Shown here piece by piece: positions 8,913 to 55,564 of a DNA stretch of 64,000 nucleotides. This stretch comes from Flavobacteriaceae bacterium UBA6231 (GTDB lineage: Bacteria; Bacteroidota; Bacteroidia; Flavobacteriales; Flavobacteriaceae): contig DJWL01000005.1 in the NCBI GenBank assembly GCA_002441545.1, forward strand, positions 7,533-71,532, read 5' to 3'. The notes beneath the pieces are model-generated. The model saw only the letters and a program-made list of their open reading frames with translations, was not told where the DNA came from and ran no database searches. Both the position numbers and the translations under genes were made by a program. How positions within the stretch are numbered: the stretch's first letter is position 1; each line of letters opens with the position of its first letter.

Positions 8913-11444
8913 ATGATGCAAAAAACAGTACTTTATCTATTAATATTATTCCTTTTTCCCTGCTTTAATCAAGCGCAACAACCCAAAAAACCTAATGCTT
9001 CAGAAATATATGAATCTATTCAAAAATTAAATTTTTTAGGTTCTGTAATGTATATTGCAGCACATCCAGATGATGAAAATACACGCCTTATCTCCTACTT
9101 ATCTAACAAAATAAAAGCGAGAACAGCTTATTTAGCTTTAACACGAGGTGATGGAGGACAAAATCTTATAGGGCCAGAAATTGGAGAGTTATTAGGTGTT
9201 ATAAGAACTGAAGAATTATTAGAAGCCCGAAAAATTGATGGTGGAGAACAGTTTTTTACAAGGGCCAACGACTTTGGTTTTTCTAAACATCCAGATGAAA
9301 CTTTGACTATATGGAACAAAAATGAGGTGTTAAGCGATGTTGTTTTAGCCATCAGAAAATTTCAGCCAGATATTATTATCAATCGATTTGACCACAGAAG
9401 TCCAGGAACTACACATGGACATCATACCAGTTCAGCCATGTTGAGTGTAGAAGCGTTTGATTTGGCAAATAAAGCTTCCGTTTATCCTGAACAACTTAAA
9501 CAAACCAGTTTATGGCAACCAAAAAAACAATTTTTCAATACGTCATGGTGGTTTTATGGCAGTCAAGAAAACTTTGATAAAGCTGACAAAACAAATTTGT
9601 TAAGTATTGACACAGGAGTTTATTTTCCTTTAAAAGGATTAAGTAATCCAGAAATTGCAGCTTTAAGCAGAAGTAAACATAAATCACAAGGTTTTGGTAG
9701 TACAGGAAGTCGTGGCGAAGAATTAGAATATATAGAACTAATAAATGGCGATTTACCAATTGATAAATCAAATATTTTTGATGGCATTGATACCACTTGG
9801 AATCGAGTTAAAGGTGGAAATGTTATCGGCAAAATTATTTCAAAAGTTGAAACAGATTTTGATTTCACAAATCCATCAGCATCGATTCCACAACTAGCTG
9901 AAGCCTATAAATTAATCCAAAAACTAGAAGATACACATTGGAAAACTATTAAATCTGAAGAAATTAAAAATATTATTGCTTCATGTGCTGGATTGTATTT
10001 AGAAGCGGTTGCAGATACAAATCATGCAACAAAAAATTCTGAAGTAAATATATCCATAGAGATGATTAATAGAAGTGATACCGATATTGTTTTTACAGGA
10101 TTAACTTTAAAAGATAACAGCGAAAAAGCATATAGCCAACTTGAATTAAAAAACAACAAAAAAGAGCAATTAAAAAACACCATTGTGATTTCTAAAAACC
10201 AAGAACCAACAACTCCATATTGGTTAACAAGTAAAGGAACTTTAGGAATGTATAAAGTAACATATCCAAATTTGATTGGCTTGCCAGAAACTCCTATTGT
10301 TTATACTGCGACTTTTGAATTAGAAATAGAAAATACCCCAATTGAATTTACAAAACCAATAGTTTATAAAACCAATAATCCTGTAAAAGGTGAAGTATAC
10401 AAACCTTTTGTTATCATACCAGAAGCTTCTGCTAAAATTGCTGAAAAAGTCATCATATTTGAAAATGACAAACAAAAAGAAATTCCTGTTATTGTTAAGG
10501 CTGGTGAAGATCAATTAGAGGGCTATGTTACAATTGCCCATCCAAAGGATTGGAATGTTTATCCAGAAAAACAAACCATTTCCATTGCACATATGGGAGA
10601 AGAGCAAACTGTTGTTTTTACCATTATTCCTCCAAAAAATCAAAGTGAAGGACTCATAACTCCTATGGTTCATATTGGTGATGACATTTACACAAGAGAG
10701 CTTATTGAAATAGCTTATGACCATATTCCATTACAAACCGTTTTATTACCAAGTGAAAGCAAAGTAGTAAGATTGAATATTCAAAAGAAAGGTGAAAATA
10801 TAGCTTATATTGAAGGTGCTGGTGATGTATTACCAGAGAGTTTAAAACAAATAGGTTATAATGTCATTACAATCGCTCCAAAAGATATAAATGCAGAAAC
10901 ATTAAGCAGATTTGATGCTGTTGTAGTTGGAATAAGAGCTTATAATACCATTGAAGATTTAAAATATAAACAACAAATATTATTTGATTTTGTTGAAGAA
11001 GGTGGGAATATGATAGTGCAATACAATACTAATTCCAGATTGCAAGTTGATAGATTAGCGCCTTTTGATTTAACACTTTCTAGAGATAGAGTGACCGATG
11101 AAAATTCTGAAGTACGCTTTTTAAACCCAAACCATTCTTTACTAAATTATCCAAATAAAATCACTCAAAAAGATTTTGAAGGATGGACCCAAGAACGTGG
11201 ATTATATTTTCCTGATAAATGGTCAAGCGAGTTCACTCCTATTCTATCAATGAACGATAAAGGTGAATCTCCAAAAGATGGCAGCTTATTAGTTACAAAA
11301 TATGGTAAAGGTTATTACATATATACCGGATTAAGCTTTTTTAGAGAATTCCCTGAAGGCGTCGCTGGCGCATACAGATTGTTTGCAAATATGCTTTCAA
11401 TTGGAAAAGAAGACATTAAGATTGAAGCAAAACTAAATGATTAA
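8913..11444 (+). CDS. Exported PIG-L/LmbE-family de-N-acetylase with C-terminal class-I-GATase-like domain
   Basis: Signal peptide; AAHPDDEN and HGHH metal motifs. ATG 8913 preferred because the track's TTG lies in TATATTTG (8887-8894). Confidence 0.85.
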   Translation: MMQKTVLYLLILFLFPCFNQAQQPKKPNASEIYESIQKLNFLGSVMYIAAHPDDENTRLISYLSNKIKARTAYLALTRGDGGQNLIGPEIGELLGVIRTEELLEARKIDGGEQFFTRANDFGFSKHPDETLTIWNKNEVLSDVVLAIRKFQPDIIINRFDHRSPGTTHGHHTSSAMLSVEAFDLANKASVYPEQLKQTSLWQPKKQFFNTSWWFYGSQENFDKADKTNLLSIDTGVYFPLKGLSNPEIAALSRSKHKSQGFGSTGSRGEELEYIELINGDLPIDKSNIFDGIDTTWNRVKGGNVIGKIISKVETDFDFTNPSASIPQLAEAYKLIQKLEDTHWKTIKSEEIKNIIASCAGLYLEAVADTNHATKNSEVNISIEMINRSDTDIVFTGLTLKDNSEKAYSQLELKNNKKEQLKNTIVISKNQEPTTPYWLTSKGTLGMYKVTYPNLIGLPETPIVYTATFELEIENTPIEFTKPIVYKTNNPVKGEVYKPFVIIPEASAKIAEKVIIFENDKQKEIPVIVKAGEDQLEGYVTIAHPKDWNVYPEKQTISIAHMGEEQTVVFTIIPPKNQSEGLITPMVHIGDDIYTRELIEIAYDHIPLQTVLLPSESKVVRLNIQKKGENIAYIEGAGDVLPESLKQIGYNVITIAPKDINAETLSRFDAVVVGIRAYNTIEDLKYKQQILFDFVEEGGNMIVQYNTNSRLQVDRLAPFDLTLSRDRVTDENSEVRFLNPNHSLLNYPNKITQKDFEGWTQERGLYFPDKWSSEFTPILSMNDKGESPKDGSLLVTKYGKGYYIYTGLSFFREFPEGVAGAYRLFANMLSIGKEDIKIEAKLND

Positions 11445-41037: not shown

Positions 41038-41059
41038 ATTTAAGTATTTTTTAATTAAT

Positions 41060-41077
41060 ATAAGTATTAATACTTAT
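41060..41077. promoter_or_regulatory. Perfect 18-bp palindrome ATAAGTA-TTAA-TACTTAT in the nrtA leader
   Basis: Immediately downstream of the TATATTTG -7 element (41084-41091, minus strand). Confidence 0.75.
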
Positions 41078-41255
41078 TTTTAACAAATATATAAGTAGTT
41101 TTAAAAATATTCCATGATTAACTACATATAAAAACATCTTTTTACACCACAAAAAAACATGCCAAAAAACATGTTTTAAACATATAGTTCTGATAGACAA
41201 ACATTTGATCATTACTTATTATTTAAATCAAGAGTACGTAATCAAAAAAATCTAT

Positions 41256-41280
41256 AAAAAAACCACCGAAAACGGTGGTT
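41256..41280 (-). terminator. Terminator of the Crp/Fnr gene
   Basis: AACCACCG-AAAA-CGGTGGTT, with a T-run following on the minus strand. Confidence 0.8.
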
Positions 41281-41312
41281 ATTAAAAAAACATATAACTT
41301 TTTAAAAAATTA

Positions 41313-42065
41313 TCAACTTCCTAGGAAATAATGATGCTCCTCTATTTCTTGTTTAAGTAATTTTTCGTTTAATATTCCTATTCTTTTGCCATTTGCTATA
41401 ATAAGCTCTTCTTTTTTTAACACCGAAAACACACGTATTACCTGCTCTTCGGTTGTACCTGCAAAATCGGCATATTCCTTTCTGCTCAGGATTAAATCTA
41501 AGTAATTATTTTTTTGATTGAATTTTCTATTAATATACAATAAGGTATCAACAACTCGTTCCCTTACAGTCATTTGAGACAAAGACTTTACTTTTGATTC
41601 GCTCCTATTAAGCTCGTTAGCATAAAACAGCATCAGATCATAGGTAAACTCAGGATGCTTCAGCAACATCTCTTGAAGCACATCTTTTGAAAAATAGCAC
41701 AATACTGTATCCTCTAAAGCAATGGCACCTATGGAATAATATTCCTCCGTTCCAAATCCGCGGTGGCCAATAATCTCTCCTGATTTTGCAAAACGCACAA
41801 TCTGTTCTCTTCCATTTATTCCAGTTCTGAATACTTTTACCTTACCTCTTAACACGAAGAAAAGTCCATTAACAGGAGCGCCTTCAATTATAAACTGCTG
41901 ACCTTTTTTACATTTAATTTCGCTTTTCTTGTCTAAAAAACTTGATGCTCTTTCTGGATTAAAATTTCGTTTAATTAAGCAGTCGTAATTCTCACAAACA
42001 GCACATAACATCCCATAAATAGGTTTCTTCCTTGATTTATCATGAAGTGTTTTAACTGCCGACAT
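41313..42065 (-). CDS. Crp/Fnr-family regulator with N-terminal C-x2-C-x4-C
   Basis: cNMP-like domain (GEIIGHRG), C-terminal HTH (LSRKEYADFAGTTEEQVIR). ATG 42065 preferred because the track's TTG at 42095 abuts the -7 element. Confidence 0.88.
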   Translation of the reverse strand: MSAVKTLHDKSRKKPIYGMLCAVCENYDCLIKRNFNPERASSFLDKKSEIKCKKGQQFIIEGAPVNGLFFVLRGKVKVFRTGINGREQIVRFAKSGEIIGHRGFGTEEYYSIGAIALEDTVLCYFSKDVLQEMLLKHPEFTYDLMLFYANELNRSESKVKSLSQMTVRERVVDTLLYINRKFNQKNNYLDLILSRKEYADFAGTTEEQVIRVFSVLKKEELIIANGKRIGILNEKLLKQEIEEHHYFLGS

Positions 42066-42105
42066 TTGTTTAAAGTCTATGATTGCATTTTTCAATTAAA
42101 CAAAT

Positions 42106-42123
42106 ATAAGTATTATTACTTAA
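42106..42123. promoter_or_regulatory. TAAGTA-N4-TACTTA operator, crp/fnr promoter
   Basis: ATAAGTA-TTAT-TACTTAA overlapping TATATTTG (42101-42108, minus strand). Confidence 0.7.
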
Positions 42124-42292
42124 TTTTAAATATAAAATACTTATTTTTTATATAATAAACCAATCTAGGAATGTGAACTCGCGAAAATTGCTATCACACA
42201 AATCAACATCTAGTAATTTCAATTAAATCTAAAGTTCATGATATTGGCTAACTTTAAAGGATTAAATAATGTTATTGAAAATAAATAGCATC

Positions 42293-43723
42293 CTACTTAA
42301 CAAATATTTTTTTTTCAAAACTGTTTTTTGGAGATTCGCAGAGTGAACATAAATAATCTTTGGGAAGGTTTTCAAAAGAAGTATTAGGGTCAATATTTTG
42401 GGTTATATCTCCATACATTTCACTGTAAATGGTTAAACACTCTTTACATTGGTAAACTTCTTCTTCTATAGTATCAATTACCGACATAGAACTACTTAAG
42501 TCTTCTCGTTCTGTTCCTAATTCCTCAAAATATAATTGACTCAATTCCATTAGCAAACTTGGCAATTCCATTTTATCTACATCTTGAACATGCATTATGT
42601 ATTCACGTGTATTAGGATCAAAATTTTTGGCATACAACAAATTATAGGTATCTCTAATTTTAAAGTCACTCAATCCTTTTGGCAAAGCGTTTTTTTCAAT
42701 AACGATGGATGTAAAATAATAGGCCTTTCTGGTATAATCTGTTATACCAAACGTTAGCCCATAAGTACTAATATCATTCTTGTCAAAATTAGTCACAAGG
42801 AATTTTTTTAATTTGATAGCATCTTTATTGGCAACTGGCAAATGCCAATTTAGTTCCAACATAGAGTGACGTACATTGATACCATGTTTTCCTAAAAATT
42901 TTTCCCAAAGTAATTTTGACTTCATTGGAATTCCTTTTACAATGAATGACTTCCATGGGGTGATGGATATCTTCCCTATCTTGTTATCAGAACACATCTC
43001 ACACATCGACTTTAAAAAAGACAAATCATACTTATTATTTCGCCAATACAATCCTAACCAGTATTTATCAACCCCAATACGGTTCATGCCTTCGTAATAA
43101 GGAAATGGATAAAAAGGCACTTCAAGTGGTTTATCTATTGTTCTGTTATTCGTTTCTATAGCATCTGTTACCAACTCAAAAATCATATCAATGGTTTCTG
43201 GATCTTCCTTTAAAATAGCCTCGATAGCCATGGCCACTTTATCTAAATCCCAGCTGTAGATAAGCGCTGGATACATTTGGGTTTTTTCCCATTCTGGAAG
43301 CCTAACATATAAATACCAGTAATCTTCATAATCTGAAGCAATGAAGTTTAAGTGTCCAGTAAATAAAGGTACTAACCGTTGTTTAGAATCGGTAATATTA
43401 ACTTTTAACTTAGGTTGTTTTCTAAACTGTTCCAGAATATATAAATACCTATCGCTGGTAAGCCAAGAAGTGCTCGGGAAAATATCTGCCGAAACATAAG
43501 ATGATACAATATTCTCATATCCAACAGTGTTAGATTCTACAATTTGTAGTTTATCAAACCCGTTCAGTTTTTTTTGGTCAATCACCTTGGGAAATAAAAT
43601 ATCCTGCCTAGAACCAAAGGAAATGGTTTTTAATCCTAAACCTTCTGCCACCTCGCAAATGTATTTCAATTCTCCTGGTGATAATACTCCACCATTGACT
43701 ATAATTCTATTAAGATCTTTCAT
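42293..43723 (-). CDS. Nitrite/sulfite-reductase-like scaffold with C-terminal rubredoxin domain
   Basis: GGVLSPGEL...ISFGSRQDI half-domain repeat; C-terminal YQCKECLTIY...CSLCESPK. Confidence 0.75.
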   Translation of the reverse strand: MKDLNRIIVNGGVLSPGELKYICEVAEGLGLKTISFGSRQDILFPKVIDQKKLNGFDKLQIVESNTVGYENIVSSYVSADIFPSTSWLTSDRYLYILEQFRKQPKLKVNITDSKQRLVPLFTGHLNFIASDYEDYWYLYVRLPEWEKTQMYPALIYSWDLDKVAMAIEAILKEDPETIDMIFELVTDAIETNNRTIDKPLEVPFYPFPYYEGMNRIGVDKYWLGLYWRNNKYDLSFLKSMCEMCSDNKIGKISITPWKSFIVKGIPMKSKLLWEKFLGKHGINVRHSMLELNWHLPVANKDAIKLKKFLVTNFDKNDISTYGLTFGITDYTRKAYYFTSIVIEKNALPKGLSDFKIRDTYNLLYAKNFDPNTREYIMHVQDVDKMELPSLLMELSQLYFEELGTEREDLSSSMSVIDTIEEEVYQCKECLTIYSEMYGDITQNIDPNTSFENLPKDYLCSLCESPKNSFEKKIFVK

Positions 43724-43811
43724 CTGTTTAAATTTATTTGTTTTTCAATAGTCAGATGGAATGCCCTTTTTGAACATTTTGGTTGTTTTGCAAAACTTGT
43801 TAATGGGCATT

Positions 43812-46800
43812 TCATGATGCCAATACGTTTGTGTTATTGAGTATTTCACGAACTTCTGTTTTACAGCTACCACAGCCCAAGCCAGCTCCAGTTTTATTAC
43901 AAAGCTCGGTAAAATTGTCACAACCATTTTCAATAGCTTCTTTAATATTGCCGGCCCCAACTTGACTGCATGAACAAACCAATTTACCAATAACAGGCTT
44001 ATCATTAGAAGCACCACGCAATAAGGTATTACGCTTATCAGCCATTTCAATTTTGCTTTCAATCATGGTTTTAAATTCAGCAAATTCATTTTTATCTCCC
44101 ATTAAAACAGCCCCTACCAACAAATCGTCTTTAACGATGCATTTTTTATAATACCGCTTAGAAATATCCGTGAATATCACTTCCTGATAACTATCATCAT
44201 TTTCAGGCACATTGATTTCTCCAATGCTACATAAATTAAGGTCGTTAAACTTTAAAATGTTCATTAATACTGAACCATTGTAGGCACAACTTACATCTCC
44301 AGCTATAAAGTTAGCCAAAATATTTGCCTGCTCTTCAGCTGCTGATGTTATCCCGAACAACTGATTATTGAACTCTGCAATTTCACCAATGGCGAAAATA
44401 TCGGGGTGTGATGATTGTAAATGCTGATTTACCTTTACACCACGACTGCAAATAATGCGATTTTCCTTAGCTATTTCTATATTGGGCACGGTTCCAATAG
44501 CATACACAATAGCATTGGCCATAATGAGTTTTCCACTTTTTAGATTGATATTAAGCTCCCCTGTATCGGCATCATCAAAAACGGTACTTACTTCATTATC
44601 AAAATAAATTTGAATACCTCGCTCTTGTACATCCAAAGCCAACAATTTACTGGACACTTTGTCCAATTGTCGTTCCATAAGTCTTGACGCACGCTGCACA
44701 ATGGTTATTTTTACGCTTTTTTGCTTTAAGGCAGCTGCTAATTCCAAGCCTAACAATCCACCGCCAACAATAACAACGTGCTGTTGTTCTGGCGGTAAAT
44801 TTGTGCTATCTAAATACGCCTTAAACCTATCAGCATCACTTTTATTTCGCATGGTAAACCTTCCAGGCAAATCAATATTCACATCTTTAGGAATAAAGGC
44901 CCTACTTCCTGTAGCCAATATAAGTTTGTCAAAGGTATAATCATCTCCAATATTATCGGTGATTGTTTTATTTTCTGAATCAATTTTTGTTATAAAACTT
45001 TCAGGGTGGATCTTGATATTTAGTTTTTTCAGCTCTTTTTCCTTAATTTTTAAAAGTTGCTCCCATGTTAGTTCTTCTGTAACATATTCTGGTAATAAAA
45101 CCCTATTATAAAAAAGATTGGGCTCTTTTGAAAACACATGGATTTCATCCTCTTCATTAAATTCCCTATAATTTTGAACAAACCTAAAGGCGGCTGCCCC
45201 GGCACCTACAATAATGATTTTCTCAAATGGTTTTTTATACTTTGTGACTGAAACGGCAGTAAATTTAAAATCCGGTTCTTTTGATTGGGGATCAACCATG
45301 TTATGCGTTAAATTATTGGCTCGATTTAAATCGCTCTTTAATTGTTTGCCCCAATGCATCGGTAAAAAAACAACACCTTTTCTTATGTTTTCTGTCACAT
45401 TTGCCCTTACCCGTACGGTGCCATGGATACTTTTTATTTCGGTAATGTCGCCATTTTTTATTTTGCACAAAAAGGCATCTATTGGATTTATTTCCAAAAC
45501 AGGTTTGGGATAATGCGTTTTTAATCGAGACACCTTTCCTGTTTTGGTCATGGTGTGCCATTGGTCCCTTACACGTCCCGTTGTTAAAATCAAAGGGAAA
45601 TCCATACTAGGTTTTATGGACCGGTTATCTATATGGCTTGGCACATTAAAAACCGCCTTTTGTGATGGCGTATAGAATTTTTTATCTTCAAAAAGCCTTG
45701 GTGTTCCAGAATGCCTGTATTCAGGAACTGGCCATTGAAATGTTCCTTCATTCTTTAATCTATCATAATTTAAAAACGAAATATCCATATTGGTTCCTTT
45801 GGTCATGGAACAATATTCACTATAAATTTCTTCAGTACTATTGTAATTGAACCCTCTAAAACCCATTTTTTGAGCAAACTCACAAAGTATTTCTACATCT
45901 GCTTTTGCTTCGCCTGGAGGGTTTATCTCTTTCGGTAAATAGGAAATTCTGCGTTCGGAATTTGTCATGGTTCCTTCTTTCTCCAACCATCCTGCAGCAG
46001 GAAGCACTAAATCTGCATACTCTACAGTATCAGATTTAAATGAAATATCTTGAACCACCACAAATTTAGCGTTTTTCATGGCTTTTTCTATGCTATGGGT
46101 ATTTGGCATACTCACCAATGGATTAGTACAAATAATCCAGACAGCCTTAAGTTTTCCTTTTTCAAGGGCATCAAACATTTCAGTAGCTGTATAACCCGCT
46201 TTATCAGAAATTTTATCTACACCCCAAAACTGAGCAACTTCACGACGATGTTCTTCATTAAAAAGATCTTTATGAACTGCTAATAAATTTGCCATGCCTC
46301 CTACTTCTCTACCTCCCATAGCATTAGGCTGCCCTGTAAGCGAAAATGGTCCTGAACCCGGTTTACCAATATGCCCCGTTAAAAGTGATAAATTTAACAA
46401 TGCAAAATTTTTATTGGTTCCTATGGCACTCTGATTAAGCCCCATAGCCCACATACTTATAAACCCTTTTGACAACCCAATAATAGTAGCCGCTTTCCGT
46501 ATGTCATCTTCTGAAACCCCACATAATTTTGAAGCTTCTTTTATGGATTTAGAAAATATTTGCTCTTTATATTTATTAAAGTCTTCTGTATGGTTCTTTA
46601 TGAAATTTTCATCCGCCAAACCACGCTCAAAAATACGCCTTCCAATCGCGTTATAAAGAATAACATCGGTTCCAGGAATCAATTGCAAATGCAAATCTGC
46701 AAAGTTTGCCGTATCGGTTTTTCGTGGATCTACTACTATTATTTTTACATCTGGATTTTGTTCTTTATGCTTTTCAAGTCTTCTAAACAATATGGGGTGA

Positions 46801-47336
46801 CACCATGCTGGATTTGCTCCCGTAATAAGAAAACTGTCAGCCAATTCAATATCATCATAAGAAACGGGTACACTATCTTCTCCAAAGGTCTTCTTGTATC
46901 CCACTACCGCAGAGCTCATGCACAAGCGCGAGTTGGTGTCAATATTGTTAGTGCCCAAAAAACCTTTTGCAAGTTTATTTGCAATATAATATTCTTCTGT
47001 TAAGCATTGACCAGACACATAAAAACCAACACTATCTGGTCCATATTTTTTAATAATTGATTTAAAAATACTACTCGCTCTCTCCAACGCATCGTCCCAA
47101 TTAACACGTTCACGTGGATGCGATCTGCTCCAACGCATTTCTGGATATAAGATTCTATCGGAAACATCATTTACAACATAATGCAAATTCATTCCTTTAG
47201 AGCACAACATGCCTTTGTTGACAGGATGGTCTTTATCACCTTCAACTACAACTTTATTATCCGCTTCTTTCTTTACAATAATTCCGCATCCTACCCCACA
47301 GTAAGAACATGTTGTTTTTACCTCATTTTGAATCAT
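43812..47336 (-). CDS. nasA: Mo-bisPGD nitrate reductase fused to FAD/NAD(P)H oxidoreductase and BFD-like [2Fe-2S] domains
   Basis: CSYCGVGCG..C, DTNSRLCMSS, TGQPNAMGGRE, GRVRDQWHTMT; then GAGAAA, GGGLLGLE, CSCSQV..C..CGSC. Confidence 0.92.
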   Translation of the reverse strand: MIQNEVKTTCSYCGVGCGIIVKKEADNKVVVEGDKDHPVNKGMLCSKGMNLHYVVNDVSDRILYPEMRWSRSHPRERVNWDDALERASSIFKSIIKKYGPDSVGFYVSGQCLTEEYYIANKLAKGFLGTNNIDTNSRLCMSSAVVGYKKTFGEDSVPVSYDDIELADSFLITGANPAWCHPILFRRLEKHKEQNPDVKIIVVDPRKTDTANFADLHLQLIPGTDVILYNAIGRRIFERGLADENFIKNHTEDFNKYKEQIFSKSIKEASKLCGVSEDDIRKAATIIGLSKGFISMWAMGLNQSAIGTNKNFALLNLSLLTGHIGKPGSGPFSLTGQPNAMGGREVGGMANLLAVHKDLFNEEHRREVAQFWGVDKISDKAGYTATEMFDALEKGKLKAVWIICTNPLVSMPNTHSIEKAMKNAKFVVVQDISFKSDTVEYADLVLPAAGWLEKEGTMTNSERRISYLPKEINPPGEAKADVEILCEFAQKMGFRGFNYNSTEEIYSEYCSMTKGTNMDISFLNYDRLKNEGTFQWPVPEYRHSGTPRLFEDKKFYTPSQKAVFNVPSHIDNRSIKPSMDFPLILTTGRVRDQWHTMTKTGKVSRLKTHYPKPVLEINPIDAFLCKIKNGDITEIKSIHGTVRVRANVTENIRKGVVFLPMHWGKQLKSDLNRANNLTHNMVDPQSKEPDFKFTAVSVTKYKKPFEKIIIVGAGAAAFRFVQNYREFNEEDEIHVFSKEPNLFYNRVLLPEYVTEELTWEQLLKIKEKELKKLNIKIHPESFITKIDSENKTITDNIGDDYTFDKLILATGSRAFIPKDVNIDLPGRFTMRNKSDADRFKAYLDSTNLPPEQQHVVIVGGGLLGLELAAALKQKSVKITIVQRASRLMERQLDKVSSKLLALDVQERGIQIYFDNEVSTVFDDADTGELNINLKSGKLIMANAIVYAIGTVPNIEIAKENRIICSRGVKVNQHLQSSHPDIFAIGEIAEFNNQLFGITSAAEEQANILANFIAGDVSCAYNGSVLMNILKFNDLNLCSIGEINVPENDDSYQEVIFTDISKRYYKKCIVKDDLLVGAVLMGDKNEFAEFKTMIESKIEMADKRNTLLRGASNDKPVIGKLVCSCSQVGAGNIKEAIENGCDNFTELCNKTGAGLGCGSCKTEVREILNNTNVLAS

Positions 47337-47450
47337 TATACCACTGAATTTTATACTAATTAAGAAAATAAAATAACGACAAACAATAGATGAACTGCAT
47401 TATTCTGAATACCATAAAAAACCAACCAAAAACTTACGAATTAGTAATTA

Positions 47451-48884
47451 TTATCCTTTAGTTTTAATTTTAATGGGAACAAGGTTCTCTATAGGCACGC
47501 GTTTGTTTTCAACAATAGCGTCTTCATTTTCTGCAGAAAAACGTATAGCCAATGCTAAAATTGCCGTAACCATTACCATACATCCAATCAACAAATACCC
47601 ACTTGAAACTGCTTGTGAAGAGGCCATTGATTGCGCTGCTTTTATTACATCCGCCCCTAATCCTTGATTGGCTGCAATAGCAGCTTTTTCAGCAAGTGCA
47701 GATTTAGATTTGAGCAATAAAGCCGCAAAAAACGCCCCTACATTACCACCTGCCCCAACAATACCTGAGACTGACCCAATGGCTTTTTTATTGATAAAAG
47801 GCACTACCGAAAACGTTGCTCCCTCGGCCATTTGAACTGATAAACTAAATAAAATCAAAAACAAAATCCCTAATATGATGTTGGTAATTCCAGAAAAAGT
47901 AACCAGCATAATTCCCTGAAGAGCAAGTATAAATGACAAAAATAGCACCCTACCACGCAATCCTTTTAACTTACCGAACTTATCTCCAAAATAGCCTCCC
48001 AATGTTCTTGCAAAAATATTCATTAATGCAAAAGACAACACAATGTTTCCTGCTGTTAATCTTTCTAACTGAAATGTATTTTGAAGATAATCGTCCATAG
48101 TACCATAAACCGTAAGCTCAATACCAAAACAAGCGGCATAGACCAAGAAAAGTATCCATATTCTATAATCCTTAATCACTGCTAAAAACCCTACTTGATC
48201 TTTCTTGGCGTTTACTTTTTTTCCTGAAGCTCTTAAATCCTCAAAATTACCTTCAGGCGTATCTTGGGTAAAAAAGTAATATACAATACCCATTAATAAA
48301 CAAATAGCACCCGCAATTATCATGGAATATCTCCAAGCCTCAGATTGAGCAACTCCCAAACCAATAACTAATGCCGCAATTAAAGGCATGCCCAAACGAT
48401 TTGCACCACCTCCTAAATTTCCCCAACCAGCAGACGTTGCATTTGCGGTACCAACAACATTTGGAGCAAACATCAGTGATGTATGCACTTGCGTTATCAC
48501 AAAAGATGCTCCAATAAAACCAATAAATAATCTACAAATAAGAAATTGAAGAGGTGTTTGCACAAAACCACATAATATGACTGGGATGGCTCCTAAAACC
48601 AAAAGCCATGTATAGCAAATTCTAGGACCATATTTATCACATAATTTACCAATAAGCAATCGGGCAAACACAGTTCCTGAAACAGCTAAAATAATAGAAT
48701 TCCATTTTTGGTCTGGTGTTAAACCTAAATCTTTAACCACATCTGGCATAAATGGAACTATGCCAAACCATGCAAAAAAGCACATAAAGAATGATATGGA
48801 AGTTATCCAGAACGTACGCACAGGAACGCTCTTAAAATCTAATAAATTAAGTGTAGTTGCTTTAACTGATACAGAATTTTTCAT
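47451..48884 (-). CDS. narK: NarK/NRT2 MFS nitrate/nitrite transporter
   Basis: Nitrate signatures FAPNVVGTANATSAGWGNLGGG and GSVSGIVGAGGNVG. Confidence 0.92.
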   Translation of the reverse strand: MKNSVSVKATTLNLLDFKSVPVRTFWITSISFFMCFFAWFGIVPFMPDVVKDLGLTPDQKWNSIILAVSGTVFARLLIGKLCDKYGPRICYTWLLVLGAIPVILCGFVQTPLQFLICRLFIGFIGASFVITQVHTSLMFAPNVVGTANATSAGWGNLGGGANRLGMPLIAALVIGLGVAQSEAWRYSMIIAGAICLLMGIVYYFFTQDTPEGNFEDLRASGKKVNAKKDQVGFLAVIKDYRIWILFLVYAACFGIELTVYGTMDDYLQNTFQLERLTAGNIVLSFALMNIFARTLGGYFGDKFGKLKGLRGRVLFLSFILALQGIMLVTFSGITNIILGILFLILFSLSVQMAEGATFSVVPFINKKAIGSVSGIVGAGGNVGAFFAALLLKSKSALAEKAAIAANQGLGADVIKAAQSMASSQAVSSGYLLIGCMVMVTAILALAIRFSAENEDAIVENKRVPIENLVPIKIKTKG

Positions 48885-48910
48885 GCCAAAATTATTTTAT
48901 ACTTACAAAA

Positions 48911-48928
48911 ATAAGTATAATTACTTAA
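48911..48928. promoter_or_regulatory. TAAGTA-N4-TACTTA operator, narK-nasA promoter
   Basis: ATAAGTA-TAAT-TACTTAA overlapping TATTTTTG (48906-48913, minus strand). Confidence 0.7.
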
Positions 48929-49054
48929 TTTTAAACATTAAAAATACGTATTATAAAATAAATATTAGATTATTAAGAATCGGTTATAATTTTGATAATA
49001 TTGGAAATAATGACTGGTTTAGTTAGTGTTTTTTATAAATCCCTTACACTACCC

Positions 49055-49717
49055 TTATTTCACAAGCTGATATTCACTTGCCTTATTACTTAATTCCATA
49101 AGATTTTTGACATCTAACTTTTTCATAAGATTGAAACGATGTACTTCTGCTGTTCTTCTACTTATTTCCAACTCTTCAGCAATATCCTTGTTGTTTTTTA
49201 ATTGCAAGACAAGTTTAAGTATTTGCTTCTCCCTTTTAGTAAGATTGAATGGATCTTCTACTGTTTCATTATTTTGCTTGGTTTTTTGATTTCCATTCAC
49301 AAAATTATTCATGATAATGGAAGATATATCGCCAGAAAAATACTTTCCACCAGAAGCAACTGTATGTATTGCTTTTATAAATTCCTCTTTACTGGCTCCT
49401 TTTAATAAATACCCATCGGCACCGGCTTGAATGGACTGAACTACGTACTCCTCGGAGTCATGCATGGAAAGCACCAAAGTTTTAATGTCTTTGTAATTTT
49501 TGTTAATCTCCCTAACAACCTCAATGCCATTCATCTCTGGCATTCTTATATCAACTATCAATAAATGTGGCTTATTTTTTTTAATGACTTCAAGTGCTTC
49601 TTTGCCATTTGAAGCCTCATCTATGACCTTAATTCCTTGTTGGTCTTCTAAAAGTGCTTTAATCCCATCTCTTACAAGTACATGATCATCTGCCAAAATA
49701 ACATTTATAATATCCAT
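49055..49717 (-). CDS. narL: NarL/LuxR-family response regulator
   Basis: ADDH, DIRMP, LSM, YLLK, LTKRE...TAEVHR.NLMKKL; ATG 49717 preferred. Confidence 0.85.
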   Translation of the reverse strand: MDIINVILADDHVLVRDGIKALLEDQQGIKVIDEASNGKEALEVIKKNKPHLLIVDIRMPEMNGIEVVREINKNYKDIKTLVLSMHDSEEYVVQSIQAGADGYLLKGASKEEFIKAIHTVASGGKYFSGDISSIIMNNFVNGNQKTKQNNETVEDPFNLTKREKQILKLVLQLKNNKDIAEELEISRRTAEVHRFNLMKKLDVKNLMELSNKASEYQLVK

Positions 49718-49751
49718 TTTTATCAAATTATAAGTACAAAAATAATGATTT

Positions 49752-49769
49752 TTACGTAATACTACTTAA
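49752..49769. promoter_or_regulatory. Variant operator TTACGTA-ATAC-TACTTAA, internal promoter of the response regulator
   Basis: Upstream of TATTTTTG (49737-49744, minus strand), right after the kinase stop codon. Confidence 0.55.
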
Positions 49770-51584
49770 CTATTCAATAGGAATGTTTAATGTTACCCTT
49801 GTTCCTTTATTAGGTTCTGAGTTAAGGAAAAGTCTACCATTAATATATTTTATCCTTTCTTTCATAAAGGTCATGCCCATACCACCATCACCATTTTTTT
49901 TGTATTCTATTTTTTCCGGATCAAATCCTTTTCCATTGTCGTCAATAACAACACTTAGCAATTTTTCACTATTGGAAAGTGTGACGATGATATGTGTGGA
50001 ATCGGCATATTTTATAGCATTGTTTATGGCCTCTTGTGTAATTCTGTAAATATTGATTTCAGAAAGCGAATCCAACCTTTGGTTAAAATCGGTTTTATTA
50101 TAAAACACAATGTTTTTGCCAGTAAGTTTTGACAATTCATTGGTAAGCTTTGCTATGGCCGGAACAATACCATGATCGGTCAACTCTGGAGGTGTTAAAT
50201 TAAAAGTAGCCATTCTAACACCCTTAATAATATTGGACGTTAACTCTTTTAGATGTTCAATTTTTAAAGCCGTTTTGTCTATATCCTTGATATCAATACT
50301 CTCTAAATTATATTTAAGCCCAGTTAGCATTTGCCCAATGCCATCATGAACATCTTTAGCTATACGGTTCTGTTCATTCTCTTGGTTTTCTATGATCTTA
50401 CTGGAAATATTCTTTTGCTGGTTCATTTTCTCCTCAAAATTGGCTTTGGTGAGTCGTTCAATTTCCAGTTGTGCTTCTTTTCTTTTTGTAATATCAGAAG
50501 CTATAATCAATAATTCGGACTTATCATCGGTAGGGTTAAAAGGAATTATTGCCATTTCCAACCAAACCTCAACTTGGTCTTTTGTGGATGCTTTCACCTC
50601 GCCTTGCCAACCTGTTTTTTTATACTTGGTAATTAAGCTTTCTATAAACAATTGATCATTCTCATTAGCTGACAATACATCTGCAAAATTTGCAACGCTA
50701 TTAAATTTATTGAACTTAAAAAGTCTTGAAAACTTATTTCCCATATGAACAATTGTTCCGCTGGAAGTAATACGAGCAAATAAAAGGGTTTCGTCCATAG
50801 CATGGCTCAACGCCCGCAATTCTTTAACAGATTTCTCTTTGGCATCGCTCAGGACATCAGCATCAAACGCCATTTTCTTAGCTTTTTTTTCTGCTATCAA
50901 CAATCCTTTAAGGGTGTTTTTTACGGTTTTAGCTGTTGGCCAAAAAATAAAAAGAAATTCTGCCAATAAAATAAGCAACGTAAAAGCCATGAGAAATAAT
51001 TCCAGCTTACGTAACCAACTAACTTTTTCATTAGCTTCAGAATCATATTGATTCACAATTTGATCCATCGCCAATAAAAAAGATCCTTCATTTTGTTTTA
51101 CTTTTTCAATATCATCAAGAAAGGTTTCAACTGGGAGTGATGGAACATTTTCTATTTTTTCAATAATAGCTTTTGAAGCTTTCTCAATAACATAAAAAGG
51201 CAGATTAATCCTACTAAACATATTGATAACCGCAATACTGTTATTACCTGGCAAACCAAGGCTATCACTTCCATTCTGAAGGGCATGGTGCGACATTTCC
51301 CATAGTTTAAGAGTTTGTTTAATCTTGTCTTTAAGTTGAATTCTTTTTTCGACGTCTTCTTCTGTAGAAAGCAATACGATTTCCTTGGTAAGTTTTTGGC
51401 TTAACATTCTTTGTCTACCTGCCACATTGATAACCCTAGAATCCCCTTCTTGATCTTTGAGATGTTTTCTAATAAGGATTTGGCTTACAATTACCGAAAA
51501 AGCAATAGTGCTCAATGCAATAATATATAAACGGCTTAATTTTTTAAATGTCCGTTGATCTAAAGAATTACCATTTTTAGTCAT
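49770..51584 (-). CDS. NarX-like sensor kinase (PilJ-type periplasmic domain, PAS, HisKA_3, HATPase)
   Basis: P-box-like INVAGRQRMLSQKLTK; RIAKDVHDGIGQ; EAINNAIKY; DNGKGF. Confidence 0.88.
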   Translation of the reverse strand: MTKNGNSLDQRTFKKLSRLYIIALSTIAFSVIVSQILIRKHLKDQEGDSRVINVAGRQRMLSQKLTKEIVLLSTEEDVEKRIQLKDKIKQTLKLWEMSHHALQNGSDSLGLPGNNSIAVINMFSRINLPFYVIEKASKAIIEKIENVPSLPVETFLDDIEKVKQNEGSFLLAMDQIVNQYDSEANEKVSWLRKLELFLMAFTLLILLAEFLFIFWPTAKTVKNTLKGLLIAEKKAKKMAFDADVLSDAKEKSVKELRALSHAMDETLLFARITSSGTIVHMGNKFSRLFKFNKFNSVANFADVLSANENDQLFIESLITKYKKTGWQGEVKASTKDQVEVWLEMAIIPFNPTDDKSELLIIASDITKRKEAQLEIERLTKANFEEKMNQQKNISSKIIENQENEQNRIAKDVHDGIGQMLTGLKYNLESIDIKDIDKTALKIEHLKELTSNIIKGVRMATFNLTPPELTDHGIVPAIAKLTNELSKLTGKNIVFYNKTDFNQRLDSLSEINIYRITQEAINNAIKYADSTHIIVTLSNSEKLLSVVIDDNGKGFDPEKIEYKKNGDGGMGMTFMKERIKYINGRLFLNSEPNKGTRVTLNIPIE

Positions 51585-51597
51585 GTTATACTTATTC

Positions 51598-52182
51598 TTA
51601 AGAAATAGCTTCTTTTATCAATGCTAAACTTTTATCTGAAAATTTAATTCTTAAAGCTTCTGCCTGTCCTTCTTTAGACATTTTTTTCCATGTTTTTTGA
51701 AGAATGTCAATAACCTTTTCATCCTCATGTTTGGCTGCAAATTCTTCAAAATAATAATCTAAAAAGACCAAACAAATAACATCTTCTATGGTTTGGCTTT
51801 CCTCATTCTTTTTTATCAGCTTTTTATTTATTAAAAAAGAAACTCTTTCAATAAATTCATCATCGTATCCCACTTCTTTTAAAATTTCTGCAGTTATTTC
51901 TGCATGCATTTTTTTAAGCGTTTCACGCCATTTTAAATATCCAACTCTATCCATAGGGTATTCATCTCTGGCTATTTTCCAACGACAAATATGTTGAGCT
52001 CTTGATGCAATTTGAAGCGCTCTTGATGCATTTGATTTGAACTGCAACAGTTTTTGGGACATTCGCTGAGAGTACAATAATTCCTTTGGAAAATCTAACC
52101 CGTGACTATGGTAGGAGTTTATATCTTCTGAATTCTTTTTGTCTATAAGCGCAATGGCTATTTCAAATTTTGTGGGTTCCAT
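51598..52182 (-). CDS. DUF4202 domain protein
   Basis: PKELLYSQRM, RAQHICRW, GYLKWR, IEDVICLVFL, KTWKKMS. Confidence 0.85.
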   Translation of the reverse strand: MEPTKFEIAIALIDKKNSEDINSYHSHGLDFPKELLYSQRMSQKLLQFKSNASRALQIASRAQHICRWKIARDEYPMDRVGYLKWRETLKKMHAEITAEILKEVGYDDEFIERVSFLINKKLIKKNEESQTIEDVICLVFLDYYFEEFAAKHEDEKVIDILQKTWKKMSKEGQAEALRIKFSDKSLALIKEAIS

Positions 52183-52193
52183 ACTATGTGTAA

Positions 52194-52571
52194 TTAATCT
52201 GCAAAGCCAATATACACATTTCCGTTTTCAATTTTAACAGGATACACCGCTATTTTTAAATCTTCACCTGTCAGATTAGAGCCATCTTCCAAAGAAAAGT
52301 TTTTTTTATGCATTGGGCAGGCCACTTTAGGAACGCCCGCTTTATCTCCAATCATTCCAAGAGACAAAACCATTTCCATTTTATGGGGACATAAATTTTG
52401 GCACGCATACCACTTAGACATTCTAGTAAAATTATAAACCGCTATTTGCTTGGTTTTGTATTTTATACAAGCACCACTATTTTCAGGAAAATCGCATACC
52501 GTGCCAACTTCAAACCAAGTTTTAACATCAGCCTCATTTACAGTATCGTATTGATTTAAAATGTCTTGCAT
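52194..52571 (-). CDS. nirD: Nitrite reductase small subunit (Rieske-like)
   Basis: NLCPH...LSLG..GD..G.PKVACPMHKKNFSLEDG. Confidence 0.92.
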   Translation of the reverse strand: MQDILNQYDTVNEADVKTWFEVGTVCDFPENSGACIKYKTKQIAVYNFTRMSKWYACQNLCPHKMEMVLSLGMIGDKAGVPKVACPMHKKNFSLEDGSNLTGEDLKIAVYPVKIENGNVYIGFAD

Positions 52572-52603
52572 ATCTAAAATTTATTTAATTCAATTTTTTA
52601 TTT

Positions 52604-52686
52604 GGGCGTTCCCCTTTGGGTCGGGCTTTTCGCTACAAGTCCTCGCTCGTACCTCGCAGCGGGCTTTCCGCTGCAATCCCTAACGC
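52604..52686. repeat. Flavobacterial intergenic REP-like element
   Basis: GC-rich stretch with ends GCGTT/AACGC, internal direct repeat CGGGCTTT(T/C)CGCT(A/G)CAA and hairpin GCAGCGG-GCTTT-CCGCTGC. Confidence 0.7.
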
Positions 52687-52750
52687 AAATGCTGTTGATT
52701 TGTTTAATCGTTAATATAAATCTCAATTCAACAGTTAAACATCAAACTCA

Positions 52751-55267
52751 CTACCAAGCCTTTGGCATTTTCATGTCGCGCATTGGCACAAATACCAAGT
52801 TATCATCGGTATCATCAGAATTCACAAAATGCCTGAAACGTTTCTTCATATTAGTATCTTCAATAGCTTGTTTCCACTCACATTCGTATTTATTAACAAG
52901 GCTTTCCATTTCTTTTTCAAGTTCTTCTACAATTCCCAAGGAATCTTCAATAACTACTTGCTTTAAATACTCAATACCACCTTCCAATTTTTCTAACCAT
53001 GGAGCTGTTCTCACCAACGGTCCAGCTGTTCGTAAGTAGTACATCAAAAACCGGTCTAGGTATTTAATGGCGGTTTTGTCATCCAATTGTTCAGCAAAAA
53101 GTACCGCATGTTTTGGTGTTGCTCCACCATTTCCACAGACATACAAATTCCAACCGCCATCAACCGCTATCAATCCAAAATCTTTTCCTCTGGCTTCGGC
53201 ACATTCTCGAATACATCCAGACACACCACCCTTTAATTTATGAGGTGAGCGTAAGCCTTTATATCTATTTTCAATTTCTATGGCAAACGTAACGCTTTCA
53301 TGCATACCGTAACGACACCATGTAGAGCCCACACAACTTTTAACAGTACGAAGCGATTTTCCGTAAGCATGTCCACTTTCAAATCCAGCTTCTATCAATT
53401 CTTTCCAAATAAGGGGTAATTCATGCAACTGTGCACCAAACAAATCAATACGTTGCCCACCGGTGATTTTTGTATATAAATCATATTTTTTTGCAACCAG
53501 CCCTAATACAATCAACTTATCGGGTGTAATTTCTCCACCAGCAATTCGTGGCACTACAGAGTAAGTTCCATTACGTTGAATGTTTGCCAAAAAGCGATCG
53601 TTAGTATCTTGAATGGTAAATTGTTTGTTTGCAGTTTCCATAGTAATCGTGGCAAAAATAGATGCCAATGCTGGTTTACAAACCTCACAACCATGACCTT
53701 CCCCAAATAAATTAAGAGCTTCTTCGTAATCTTTAACCTTGTTGATTTTAATAAGGTCATAAAGCTCCTGTCTGTTAAAACTAAAATGCTCACAAATAGT
53801 TTCTTTAACTTCTTTACCAAGCGATTTAAGGGTTTCATTTACCAAATCGACCACCATAGGTTTACAACCGCCACACCCCGTTGTTGCTTTTGTTTTGGCA
53901 ACCACATCGGTCAAATTATTACACCCGCCTTCTGTAATGGAACTGCAAATAGCTCCTTTTGAAATACTTTCACAAGAACACACTTGGGCAGCATCTGGAA
54001 TGTCCATAACACTACCAAACGACGACCCGCCTTCCCCTCTAGCACCAATAATCAATTCTTCGGCGTCTTCAGGTATTGGTAATCCATTTAAATAGATTTG
54101 ATGGAACATATTGTAATCTGAGGCATCACCTATCAGGATACCTCCTAATAATTTTTTTCCATCATGACTTACGTTAATACGCTTATATAAATTTTTGTTT
54201 TTATTTTCATAAATGATGGAATACCCTTTTTCTACAGGCATAAAAGGCTCTCCATAACTAGCTACATCAACCCCTATCAACTTTAATTTGGTTGACATAT
54301 CTATATCCTGCTCCATGACAACCTCTTTGTTTCCCAATATTTGATTGACTGCAACTTCTGCCATATCATACCCTGGAGCCACTAGACCATAAATCATATT
54401 GTTCAACAAAGCCACTTCACCAATAGCATAAATTTCGGAATCCGATGTTTGCATTTTGTTATTCACAACAATACCTCCACGTACCCCCATTTTTAAATTG
54501 CACGTTTTTCCTAATTCGTCACGTGGCCTTATCCCTGCAGAAATGACCAGCATTTCCACATCTATCTTATCATATTCGCCAAACTCCATACCTGTTATGG
54601 CATCATCTCCTAAAATTTTATCGGTTACTTTAGATAAATGCACGTGAATACCCAATGATTCTATTTTTTCCTGAAGCACTTTACTTCCCCTGGTATCCAA
54701 TTGTCTAGGCATTAATTTAGGAGCAAACTCCACAACATGAGGTTCAAACCCCATGTCTTTAACAGCCTTTGCTGCTTCCAATCCTAAAAGCCCACCTCCT
54801 AATACGGCCGCCTTAATAGTTTCCTTTCTTTTACCTTTTATTTTATCGGCATAAGCTAGCATTGCTTCTAAATCTTCAATAGTGCGATAGACAAACACTC
54901 CTTTCTTTTCTACCCCTACTATATTAGGAACAAAAGGCGCTGAACCCGTTGCTAAAACCAAGTAGTCATACTTATAATGAAGGTCTTTCGTAGTGGTAAC
55001 TTTTTTTGAAGCGCGATGGATATCGGTAATCCGTTCATTTGTAACCAATTCAATTCCATTCTCTTCATACCAAGATCTCGGTGCCATTTCTAAAGCTTTG
55101 GCATCTTGCTTCTCAAAGAATTCACTTAAATGCACCCGATCGTAAGCAGGTCTTACCTCTTCACCAAAAACAGTTATTTGAAATTTTTCTCTATTAGGTT
55201 TTGATATAAACTTCTCACAGAATTTATATCCTACCATACCATTACCTACAACAATAATTTTTCGCAT
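52751..55267 (-). CDS. nirB: NAD(P)H-dependent siroheme nitrite reductase, large subunit
   Basis: GNGMVG, GGGLLGLE, two BFD-type Cys clusters, CVGSTWC...GCIREC siroheme/4Fe-4S ligands; ATG 55267 preferred. Confidence 0.95.
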   Translation of the reverse strand: MRKIIVVGNGMVGYKFCEKFISKPNREKFQITVFGEEVRPAYDRVHLSEFFEKQDAKALEMAPRSWYEENGIELVTNERITDIHRASKKVTTTKDLHYKYDYLVLATGSAPFVPNIVGVEKKGVFVYRTIEDLEAMLAYADKIKGKRKETIKAAVLGGGLLGLEAAKAVKDMGFEPHVVEFAPKLMPRQLDTRGSKVLQEKIESLGIHVHLSKVTDKILGDDAITGMEFGEYDKIDVEMLVISAGIRPRDELGKTCNLKMGVRGGIVVNNKMQTSDSEIYAIGEVALLNNMIYGLVAPGYDMAEVAVNQILGNKEVVMEQDIDMSTKLKLIGVDVASYGEPFMPVEKGYSIIYENKNKNLYKRINVSHDGKKLLGGILIGDASDYNMFHQIYLNGLPIPEDAEELIIGARGEGGSSFGSVMDIPDAAQVCSCESISKGAICSSITEGGCNNLTDVVAKTKATTGCGGCKPMVVDLVNETLKSLGKEVKETICEHFSFNRQELYDLIKINKVKDYEEALNLFGEGHGCEVCKPALASIFATITMETANKQFTIQDTNDRFLANIQRNGTYSVVPRIAGGEITPDKLIVLGLVAKKYDLYTKITGGQRIDLFGAQLHELPLIWKELIEAGFESGHAYGKSLRTVKSCVGSTWCRYGMHESVTFAIEIENRYKGLRSPHKLKGGVSGCIRECAEARGKDFGLIAVDGGWNLYVCGNGGATPKHAVLFAEQLDDKTAIKYLDRFLMYYLRTAGPLVRTAPWLEKLEGGIEYLKQVVIEDSLGIVEELEKEMESLVNKYECEWKQAIEDTNMKKRFRHFVNSDDTDDNLVFVPMRDMKMPKAW

Positions 55268-55290
55268 GACTACGTAATTGAAAAACAAAT

Positions 55291-55308
55291 ATAAGTATTA
55301 TTACTTAA
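55291..55308. promoter_or_regulatory. TAAGTA-N4-TACTTA operator, nirB promoter
   Basis: ATAAGTA-TTAT-TACTTAA overlapping TATATTTG (55286-55293, minus strand). Confidence 0.7.
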
Positions 55309-55564
55309 TTTTTATTACGTAATTAAAAAAATTATATGTTATGATATATTATTATCGATTTCTCAAATAGGAACAGTTTAAATTGATTAATAATCAAAAT
55401 AGACATTCACAATTAAGCCGTATAAAAATAATCGCTCTATGTCTTCACTGTTTTGTTACATCCCATTTTTCAAAGGAAAACTCTCTTTTTGATGGTTATT
55501 AAAGCCACCTACCATGTATCAACTTAAAAAAAATCTATTTCAATAAATGAGAGAAGATAAAAAC

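Follow-up and report, generated by a model that had tools for sequence, protein, structure and literature searches.

A putative operator confined to the nitrate-assimilation cluster of a Flavobacteriaceae genome and a candidate NarL/FixJ-family response regulator as its binder

Among the main consumers of organic matter from algae are the marine Flavobacteriaceae, and new production is affected by the nitrate that they use. How these bacteria control nitrate assimilation, a subject on which we found nothing published, is the question raised by a stretch of 64,000 nucleotides from Flavobacteriaceae bacterium UBA6231 (hereafter the window; C90:7533-71532, from an assembly of 3.6 Mb with 31.5% G+C). 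Based on Pfam annotation of the window, all genes at 37.5-55.3 kb lie on the minus strand and form one nitrate-assimilation cluster, organized in the groups nirB-nirD-DUF4202-sensor kinase (HK)-response regulator (RR), narK-nasA-rubredoxin/NiR-like protein, a Crp/Fnr regulator, and nrtABC; the product of nasA is a fused reductase of 1174 amino acids. Five promoters of the cluster (nirB, an internal RR promoter, narK, crp and nrtA) each carry one copy of the palindrome TAAGTA-N4-TACTTA or of a variant of it. The reading favored here is that the cluster's own RR uses the palindrome as its operator, that bound RR would occlude the promoters, and that nitrate would relieve this block; judged from sequence comparisons, we assign it a probability of roughly 0.55.

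Four perfect copies of the palindrome were found in the window (41061-41076, 42107-42122, 48912-48927 and 55292-55307), and a search allowing one mismatch added the variant TACGTAATACTACTTA at 49753-49768, past the HK stop codon and ahead of the RR start. These are the five promoter copies already listed by an initial annotation made from the sequence alone, whose coordinates were one base low. A further one-mismatch match at 54959, inside nirB, is attributed to chance. Perfect copies were not expected by chance (0 in 100 dinucleotide-preserving shuffles), and the four in the window were the only ones in the whole 3.6-Mb genome. The relaxed pattern TAMGTA-N4-TACKTA matched the genome five times, and all five matches were the cluster sites. 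In a weight-matrix scan of the genome these sites scored 19.7-24.1 bits, the next best match, inside an open reading frame, scored 14.4 bits, and most of the matches outside the cluster (at most 14.4 bits) were also in open reading frames. The initial annotation had entertained a global nitrogen regulator as one possible binder; the whole-genome scan revealed no sites outside the cluster, and hence nothing like the pattern of an NtcA/TnrA/GlnR-like protein at glnA, amtB or urease, so that the restriction of the sites to the cluster is evidence against such a regulator.

The placement of the sites relative to the core promoter was then described with respect to the Bacteroidota -7 consensus TAnnTTTG, from which transcription starts were inferred. 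Three architectures were distinguished. In type A (crp, narK and nirB) the palindrome and an exact -7 box share a TA, which ends the former and begins the latter, the right half-site covering positions -17 to -11; in type B (nrtA) the palindrome begins 7 nucleotides (nt) past the -7 box and occupies about +4 to +19; in type C (the RR promoter) it lies over the -33 region (about -35 to -20), starting 1 nt past the HK stop codon and stopping 8 nt short of the -7 box. The placements given by the initial annotation (on the -7 box at crp, narK and nirB, just downstream of it at nrtA, over the -33 region at RR) therefore stand, as does its description of a cluster-specific operator in repressor-like positions. 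The extra half-sites that it had noticed beside narK and nirB are present, and lone hexamers (TACGTA, TAAGTA or TACTTA) also accompany the sites at crp, nrtA and RR, one of them abutting the -7 box in types B and C. The promoters of crp and nirB share an identical 30-mer. The features of the five promoters are as follows.

55292-55307, minus strand: nirB operator palindrome TAAGTAATAATACTTA, type A; box at +14 in 21/31 orthologous contexts
55286-55293, minus strand: -7 box TATATTTG of the nirBD-DUF4202-HK-RR operon; exact match to TAnnTTTG
55316-55321, minus strand: lone TACGTA upstream of the nirB palindrome, by sequence reading
55271-55276, minus strand: lone TACGTA between the -7 box and the nirB ATG (55267), by sequence reading
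49753-49768, minus strand: variant palindrome TAAGTAGTATTACGTA of the RR promoter, type C; box at +23 to +25 in 15/17 orthologous contexts
49737-49744, minus strand: -7 box TATTTTTG of the RR promoter, by sequence reading
49731-49736, minus strand: lone TACTTA abutting the RR -7 box downstream, by sequence reading
48912-48927, minus strand: operator palindrome TAAGTAATTATACTTA of narK (-nasA-rubredoxin protein), type A; box at +14 in 26/40 orthologous contexts
48906-48913, minus strand: -7 box TATTTTTG of narK, by sequence reading
48945-48950, minus strand: lone TACGTA 23 nt upstream of the narK palindrome start; -23 recurs in 15/40 narK promoters
48900-48905, minus strand: lone TAAGTA immediately past the narK -7 box, by sequence reading
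42107-42122, minus strand: crp/fnr operator palindrome TAAGTAATAATACTTA, type A; box at +14 in 48/60 orthologous contexts
42101-42108, minus strand: -7 box TATATTTG of crp/fnr, by sequence reading
42138-42143, minus strand: lone TAAGTA 21 nt upstream of the crp palindrome start; -20/-21 recurs in 36/60 crp promoters
41061-41076, minus strand: nrtA operator palindrome TAAGTATTAATACTTA, type B; box at -15 to -17 in 67/79 orthologous contexts
41084-41091, minus strand: -7 box TATATTTG of nrtABC, by sequence reading
41092-41097, minus strand: lone TACTTA abutting the nrtA -7 box upstream; recurs in 68/79 nrtA promoters
41041-41046, minus strand: lone TACTTA 3 nt before the nrtA ATG (41037), by sequence reading
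41114-41127, minus strand: second palindrome ATGtagttaatCAT (ATG-N8-CAT), centered 29.5 nt upstream of the -7 box start (-41.5); candidate Crp site

Conservation in orthologous promoters, the lack of which would have refuted the operator according to the initial annotation, was clearly observed, the motif being kept in more than 60 genera. With the Crp protein as query, 80 loci from many genera of Flavobacteriaceae were recovered, the closest from Gaetbulibacter (92% identity) and others from Mariniflexile, Cellulophaga, Polaribacter, Maribacter, Algibacter and Tenacibaculum, among others; in the 81 loci including the window (1.59 Mb) the pattern TAMGTA-N4-TACKTA matched 244 times, compared with 0 for the reversed control. 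The motif and the cluster were also found in the genus g190 and in a genome of another family (G486). When loci from other genomes were added and sites no more than 120 nt upstream of a gene were retained, the promoter-context set comprised 241 unique sites (nrtA 79, crp 60, narK 40, nirB 31, RR 17 and nasA 14). Across this set the spacer consists of A and T only, with TTAA at 73-80% per position, and position 3 of the half-site is A or C, mirrored as T or G in the other arm. The register is also kept: relative to the palindrome start, an exact -7 box starts at +14 in most type A promoters, at -15 to -17 at nrtA and at +23 to +25 at RR, with the counts given above. Lone hexamers recur at -20/-21 at crp, -23 at narK, -33 at nirB and -21 to -23 at nrtA, where they abut the box; these spacings therefore place all hexamers roughly on one face of the helix, with one always touching the -7 box. 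In nirB promoters of the Cellulophaga/Maribacter type, the -7 box is fused to a hexamer, and the full palindrome, centered near -51, is located about 43 nt upstream of this hexamer.

Some matches of the patterns were of another kind. Just after crp and about 160 base pairs (bp) upstream of nrtA, three loci (L021:10751, L029:10759 and L010:10775) carry TACGTA-N4-TACGTA with G/C-containing spacers; because of these spacers, and because the L021 copy is flanked by inverted repeats and T-runs, they were left out as operators and are probably terminator hairpins of crp. In two genomes (G206 and G176) the sequence TACGTAGAACTACGTA is repeated at scattered places (21 and 7 pattern matches, respectively) and seems to be a dispersed repeat that has nothing to do with nitrate genes. 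In L087 (G016:C1), from a genome lacking HK, Crp and NasA, a stretch of about 100 nt that includes TAAGTATCAATACTTA occurs twice in identical form, at positions 9371 and 11230, 1.86 kb apart; this pair is a duplicated, seemingly coding stretch and not an operator.

Two products of the cluster were candidate binders, and they are given here together with the sensor kinase.

49055-49717, minus strand: response regulator (RR), receiver plus GerE/LuxR helix-turn-helix; candidate operator binder
49770-51584, minus strand: sensor kinase (HK), NarX/NarQ-like, putative periplasmic nitrate/nitrite sensor, with P-box VINVAGRQRMLSQKL, PAS, HisKA_3 and HATPase domains (Pfam)
41313-42065, minus strand: Crp/Fnr regulator, FNR-like, with conserved cysteines; a member of the regulon, not assigned as binder of the TAAGTA palindrome

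The start of the Crp/Fnr gene is better placed at the ATG at 42065, the TTG at 42095 given by the list of open reading frames being probably wrong. No Pfam match to HAMP was obtained in HK, whose P-box is a canonical nitrate P-box. RR contains Response_reg (4e-31) and GerE (3e-17) domains, and its acidic pocket, phospho-acceptor Asp (IVDIRMP), Ser and Lys all align with those of NarL.

The distribution of these proteins was surveyed in 251 genomes, essentially one per genus of Flavobacteriaceae, of which 37 carried the Crp orthologue, 61 the NarX-like HK and 60 the fused NasA. HK was present in all 37 genomes with Crp and in 58 of the 60 with NasA. Another 24 genomes carried HK and no Crp; the palindrome was kept in 19/19 of those examined that carry the cluster, on the nirB, narK, nasA, nrtA and RR promoters, as in genomes with Crp. 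In two loci (L101 of G120 and L104 of G192) no operator was detected in the fetched stretch, where nirB, nasA, the nrt genes and an adjacent RR were missing too; only the kinase and DUF4202 were found, plus nirD in G192, whose contig ends just past that gene. Both look like decaying clusters.

The recognition helix of RR varied together with the half-site. Lineages with Val in this helix (...SKRTAEVHRFNLMKKL) mainly use TAAGTA (position 3 A:C = 114:34; A in the majority in 21/24 genomes), and those with Thr (...SKRT(V/I)ETHRFNLMRKM) mainly TACGTA (24:76; A in the majority in 0/14 genomes), these counts being made without regard to phylogeny. The genome from outside the family (G486), with the Thr-type RR helix SIRTIETHRF, has TACGTA halves only. 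The co-varying residue aligns with Val189 of NarL (alignment to 1a04), and the recognition helix of Crp, TTEEQVIR, is invariant in both groups. In addition, the RR helix SRRTAEVHRFNLMKKL matches that of FixJ, SPRTVEVHRANVMAKM, and the KTVETHRxNxMRKL of SsrB/EsrB. Taken together, co-occurrence, covariation of helix and half-site, and the FixJ-like recognition helix suggest that the palindrome is very probably bound by the cluster's own NarL/FixJ-family RR, the NarL-like protein that had been one of the two candidates of the initial annotation.

Besides this operator, the nrtA promoters carry a second palindrome. ATG-N8-CAT was present at nrtA in 61/73 loci with crp and in 0/6 loci without it, and was absent from all other promoter classes; it starts 36 nt before the -7 box, so that its center falls at -41.5 if the T of TAnnTTTG is taken as -12, and it is preceded by a conserved TAAAAAGA..TTT. 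Class II sites of the Crp/Fnr family have the frame xTG-N8-CAx (GTG-N8-CAC for CRP, TTG-N8-CAA for FNR, GTA-N8-TAC for NtcA). As both its frame and its position are typical of such sites, the second palindrome was tentatively given to the FNR-like Crp as a candidate class II site. The sensor domain of the Crp/Fnr protein is extremely conserved, each of the cysteines C21-x2-C24-x4-C29, C51 and C123 being kept in at least 95% of 84 orthologues, and the protein is probably an Fe-S sensor of O2 or nitric oxide (NO). In many genera, although not in the window, an operon lies between crp and nrtA (e.g., L013:11175-14815) that encodes a globin, a Tll0287-like protein, a 159-amino-acid protein of unknown function, an FAD/NAD/2Fe-2S reductase (FNR-type) and a multihaem cytochrome c. 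Its promoter has CTG-N8-CAT at -41.5, preceded by the same conserved element, and the RR palindrome just past the -7 box (type B), and the operon looks like an NO-detoxification module of the same regulon.

In the mechanism proposed here, RR dimers would bind the 16-bp TAMGTA-N4-TACKTA and further subunits the lone hexamers two to three helical turns away. Bound RR would shut RNA polymerase out of the promoters of nirBD-DUF4202-HK-RR, of RR itself (internal), of narK-nasA, of crp and of nrtABC, and nitrate sensing by HK would change the phosphorylation of RR so that the promoters are freed. Occlusion, by a cooperative assembly of RR, is preferred because each architecture puts a half-site on the -7 box or on the transcription start. 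NarL, too, represses by occupying -10/+1 regions, e.g., at frdA and dmsA. The -33 TTG is weak, being found in 20% of promoters genome-wide vs. 11-13% of the nitrate promoters; since the latter combine full-consensus -7 boxes with a -33 element that is weak throughout the genome, they should be intrinsically active. The nrtA and globin-operon promoters have, in addition, their own candidate activator site at -41.5. We infer that, provided RR is the binder, repression is the rather likelier sign of regulation.

Several points weigh against this reading. In the NarX/NarQ kinases characterized so far, the presence of nitrate leads to phosphorylation of the regulator, and NarL binds DNA only in its phosphorylated form (PMC10853779). 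A nitrate-activated RR that represses assimilation genes is thus physiologically odd and needs an extra assumption: given the known polarity, relief by nitrate requires that the output of the kinase be inverted, as a kinase without HAMP might conceivably allow, or that RR bind when unphosphorylated. A rigid helical register is also expected of an activator that contacts the polymerase. The covariation of helix and half-site may reflect only one or two evolutionary events, and a third, unlinked regulator is compatible with the co-occurrence because HK/RR and the targets are nearly always inherited together. As to RNA evidence for the start sites, the window sequence matched only DNA metagenome runs, and one Cellulophaga baltica RNA run did not contain it.

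The alternative that shares most with promoter occlusion by RR keeps the same binder and reverses the sign: nitrate-activated, phosphorylated RR would activate from inside the core promoter of Bacteroidota sigma-A promoters, either from the side of the DNA that faces away from the polymerase or by standing in for the weak -33 element. A nitrate sensor should turn on genes of nitrate assimilation and NO detoxification, the characterized NarX/Q-NarL, FixJ and SsrB systems are activators that bind when phosphorylated, and the very rigid -7 register, the hexamers on one helical face, the type A logos without a conserved -33 TTTG and the Cellulophaga/Maribacter-type nirB palindrome near -51 would all suit it. 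The right half-site, however, extends over the TA that opens the -7 box (-12/-11 when the box is aligned with the E. coli -10 hexamer), the palindromes of nrtA and the globin operon lie downstream of the start site, and we know of no precedent in the RR family for activation from downstream of the start or within the core promoter. The missing -33 TTG, at one point considered as a sign of activator dependence, is uninformative with an element this weak genome-wide; the perfect-consensus -7 boxes are unlike those of activator-dependent promoters, and a separate candidate activator site is present at -41.5. Activation by RR, by either route, is on balance a serious though unlikely explanation. 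Improbable, by comparison, is an unlinked protein, such as a Bacteroidota nitrogen-status regulator recruited to this cluster only, with RR acting elsewhere or on lone hexamers only. In its favor, nothing in the window explains ammonium repression, co-occurrence of motif and RR is confounded with that of motif and targets, and one site is found upstream of nirB even in a genome (G017) whose sole HK/RR pair is distant (32% and 42%, respectively). Such a regulator fits poorly with 0 sites outside the cluster (unlike a global regulator), an RR helix that co-varies with the half-site and is that of FixJ, a binder of TAAGTA, and a site at RR's own internal promoter.

Binding of the palindrome by the FNR-like Crp/Fnr protein is very improbable. 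It was the reading that we favored at first, to which the site on the crp promoter in nearly all loci with crp (autoregulation), the FNR-box-like 5-N4-5 geometry, the 16-bp length with a central G per half, which suits a dimer of the Crp family, and the retained recognition-helix Glu and Arg lend some color; it was dropped given that the 19 genomes without a Crp orthologue keep the motif at the same promoters and that the Crp helix does not change across the TAAGTA/TACGTA switch. The palindrome, moreover, lacks the family frame xTG-N8-CAx, and the element at -41.5, confined to loci with crp, is the better candidate for this protein. FNR-like boxes (TGAY-N4-RTCA, TTGA-N6-TCAA) were also considered and rejected, being conserved in 0/241 promoter contexts; the sole window copy, at 44185, is inside nasA. 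Hardly credible, finally, is the notion that the palindrome is not a protein operator, and represents instead either an extended promoter element peculiar to the lineage or a hairpin (a stem in the 5' untranslated region or a DNA cruciform). Half-sites are indeed fused to the -7 box (TACKTAnnTTTG), the nrtA palindrome is transcribed and could fold into a 6-bp AU-rich stem, and some of the G/C-spacer matches after crp look like terminator hairpins (L021:10751); against this, the palindrome occupies three different positions with respect to the -7 box, some within the transcript and some outside it, other -7-box promoters of the genome lack it, and it is the sequence that is conserved and not pairing alone, with no compensatory changes and only the symmetrical A/C variation at position 3.

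With RR occlusion retained as the favored reading, the cluster would represent, tentatively and at a little under even odds, a nitrate system of inverted logic that represses all of its promoters, with an Fe-S FNR-like co-regulator at -41.5; core-promoter activation, the alternative, would be equally unprecedented. On either reading, nitrate assimilation in Bacteroidota, a phylum in which, to our knowledge, few regulated promoters have been defined, would have its first defined regulator-operator pair. The analysis names a precise regulon (five promoters here and the globin/NO-detoxification operon in relatives), a binder, and a residue pair in which Val/Thr goes with A/C, and the promoter architecture could serve as a nitrate-responsive genetic switch in Bacteroidota. 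The puzzle of a nitrate-sensor regulator in repressor positions bears either on the polarity of HAMP-less kinases or on activation at -33/-7 promoters.

Two further proteins of the cluster have fixed positions. The DUF4202 protein (51598-52182, minus strand) is always encoded between nirD and the kinase, and a 476-amino-acid protein (42293-43723, minus strand), with an NiR/SiR ferredoxin-like half-domain and a C-terminal rubredoxin, always after nasA; neither exceeded the cut-off of any NCBIfam model.

In the literature search for the motif or for a flavobacterial nitrate regulator, only a bioinformatic description of the kinase class was found. The kinase class and the RR superfamily are known; in line with the remark of the initial annotation that the motif seemed undescribed, no description was found for Bacteroidota, and the searchable literature yielded neither the operator nor the regulon, the -7 placement or the Crp co-site.

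How does the system compare with those that are known? In the parts that we saw of Gushchin et al. 2021 (PMC8199190), a class of Bacteroidetes nitrate/nitrite kinases is described that has a P-box sensor, no HAMP or GAF, PAS, DHp and CA; the architecture of HK is the one reported there for Flavobacteriales, and those parts contained no DNA site, regulon or promoter placement of a regulator. NarL and NarP (7-2-7, TACYYMT-N2-AKRRGTA) are alike in combining a nitrate/nitrite P-box kinase with a GerE-type regulator, and in having a 16-bp inverted repeat with TA at both ends plus scattered single heptamers. Here, in contrast, the targets are assimilatory and not respiratory, and the kinase has PAS and lacks HAMP and GAF (PMC8199190). 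The best full-length solved match of RR was E. coli NarL (E 6e-35); for the DNA-binding domain alone the closest solved structure was EsrB (E 1.5e-15). None of the NCBIfam equivalog cut-offs (NarL, NarP, FixJ, UhpA and others) was reached by RR, which scored 155.8 for NarL (cut-off 250) and 92.4 for FixJ (cut-off 255). The bases are contacted in NarL by Lys188, Val189 and Lys192 of helix alpha-9 (PMC10853779), positions at which RR has Glu, Val (Thr in some lineages) and Phe (alignment to 1a04). The initial annotation had taken the resemblance to TACYYMT of NarL as a fit; it is regarded here as coincidental, since RR lacks the lysines that contact the bases. The seventh base of the outward reading TACTTAT is not conserved among the 241 unique sites, and when read in the 16-bp frame the half-site, TAMGTAT, has at position 4 a G where the NarL heptamer has Y.

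The arrangement that had appeared as a reversed 7-4-7 is the usual 16-bp dimer frame of the family, also writable as 7-2-7 (TAMGTAT-NN-ATACKTA), and it is the frame of the FixJ site and of the core of the SsrB palindrome. The SsrB site is an 18-bp 7-4-7 tail-to-tail palindrome of which one heptamer can suffice, with the hexamer ACmTTA (PMC2837388). Like it, the sites described here have tail-to-tail halves 4 bp apart, and the lineages that use TACGTA have an SsrB-type helix (KTVETHRxNxMRK); the half-site differs (TAAkGT in SsrB vs. TAMGTA), and SsrB, which was acquired by horizontal transfer and acts as a virulence activator and H-NS counter-silencer, is loosely spaced relative to the start, unlike the rigid -7 register observed here. 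FixJ belongs to the same superfamily, and its experimentally defined site in the fixK promoter of Sinorhizobium meliloti, TAAGTAATTTCCCTTA, as well as one class, GTAMGTAG, from systematic evolution of ligands by exponential enrichment (PMC4999443), share the half-site TAAGTA/TAMGTA and the 6-4-6, 16-bp frame; the helices are also nearly identical (RTVEVHRANVM in FixJ vs. RTAEVHRFNLM in RR, alignment to 1x3u). The partner of FixJ is the haem O2 sensor FixL, in contrast to the NarX/Q-like P-box kinase of this cluster, and FixJ activates from upstream sites (-69 to -31), whereas here a perfect palindrome lies on the -7 box or on the start.

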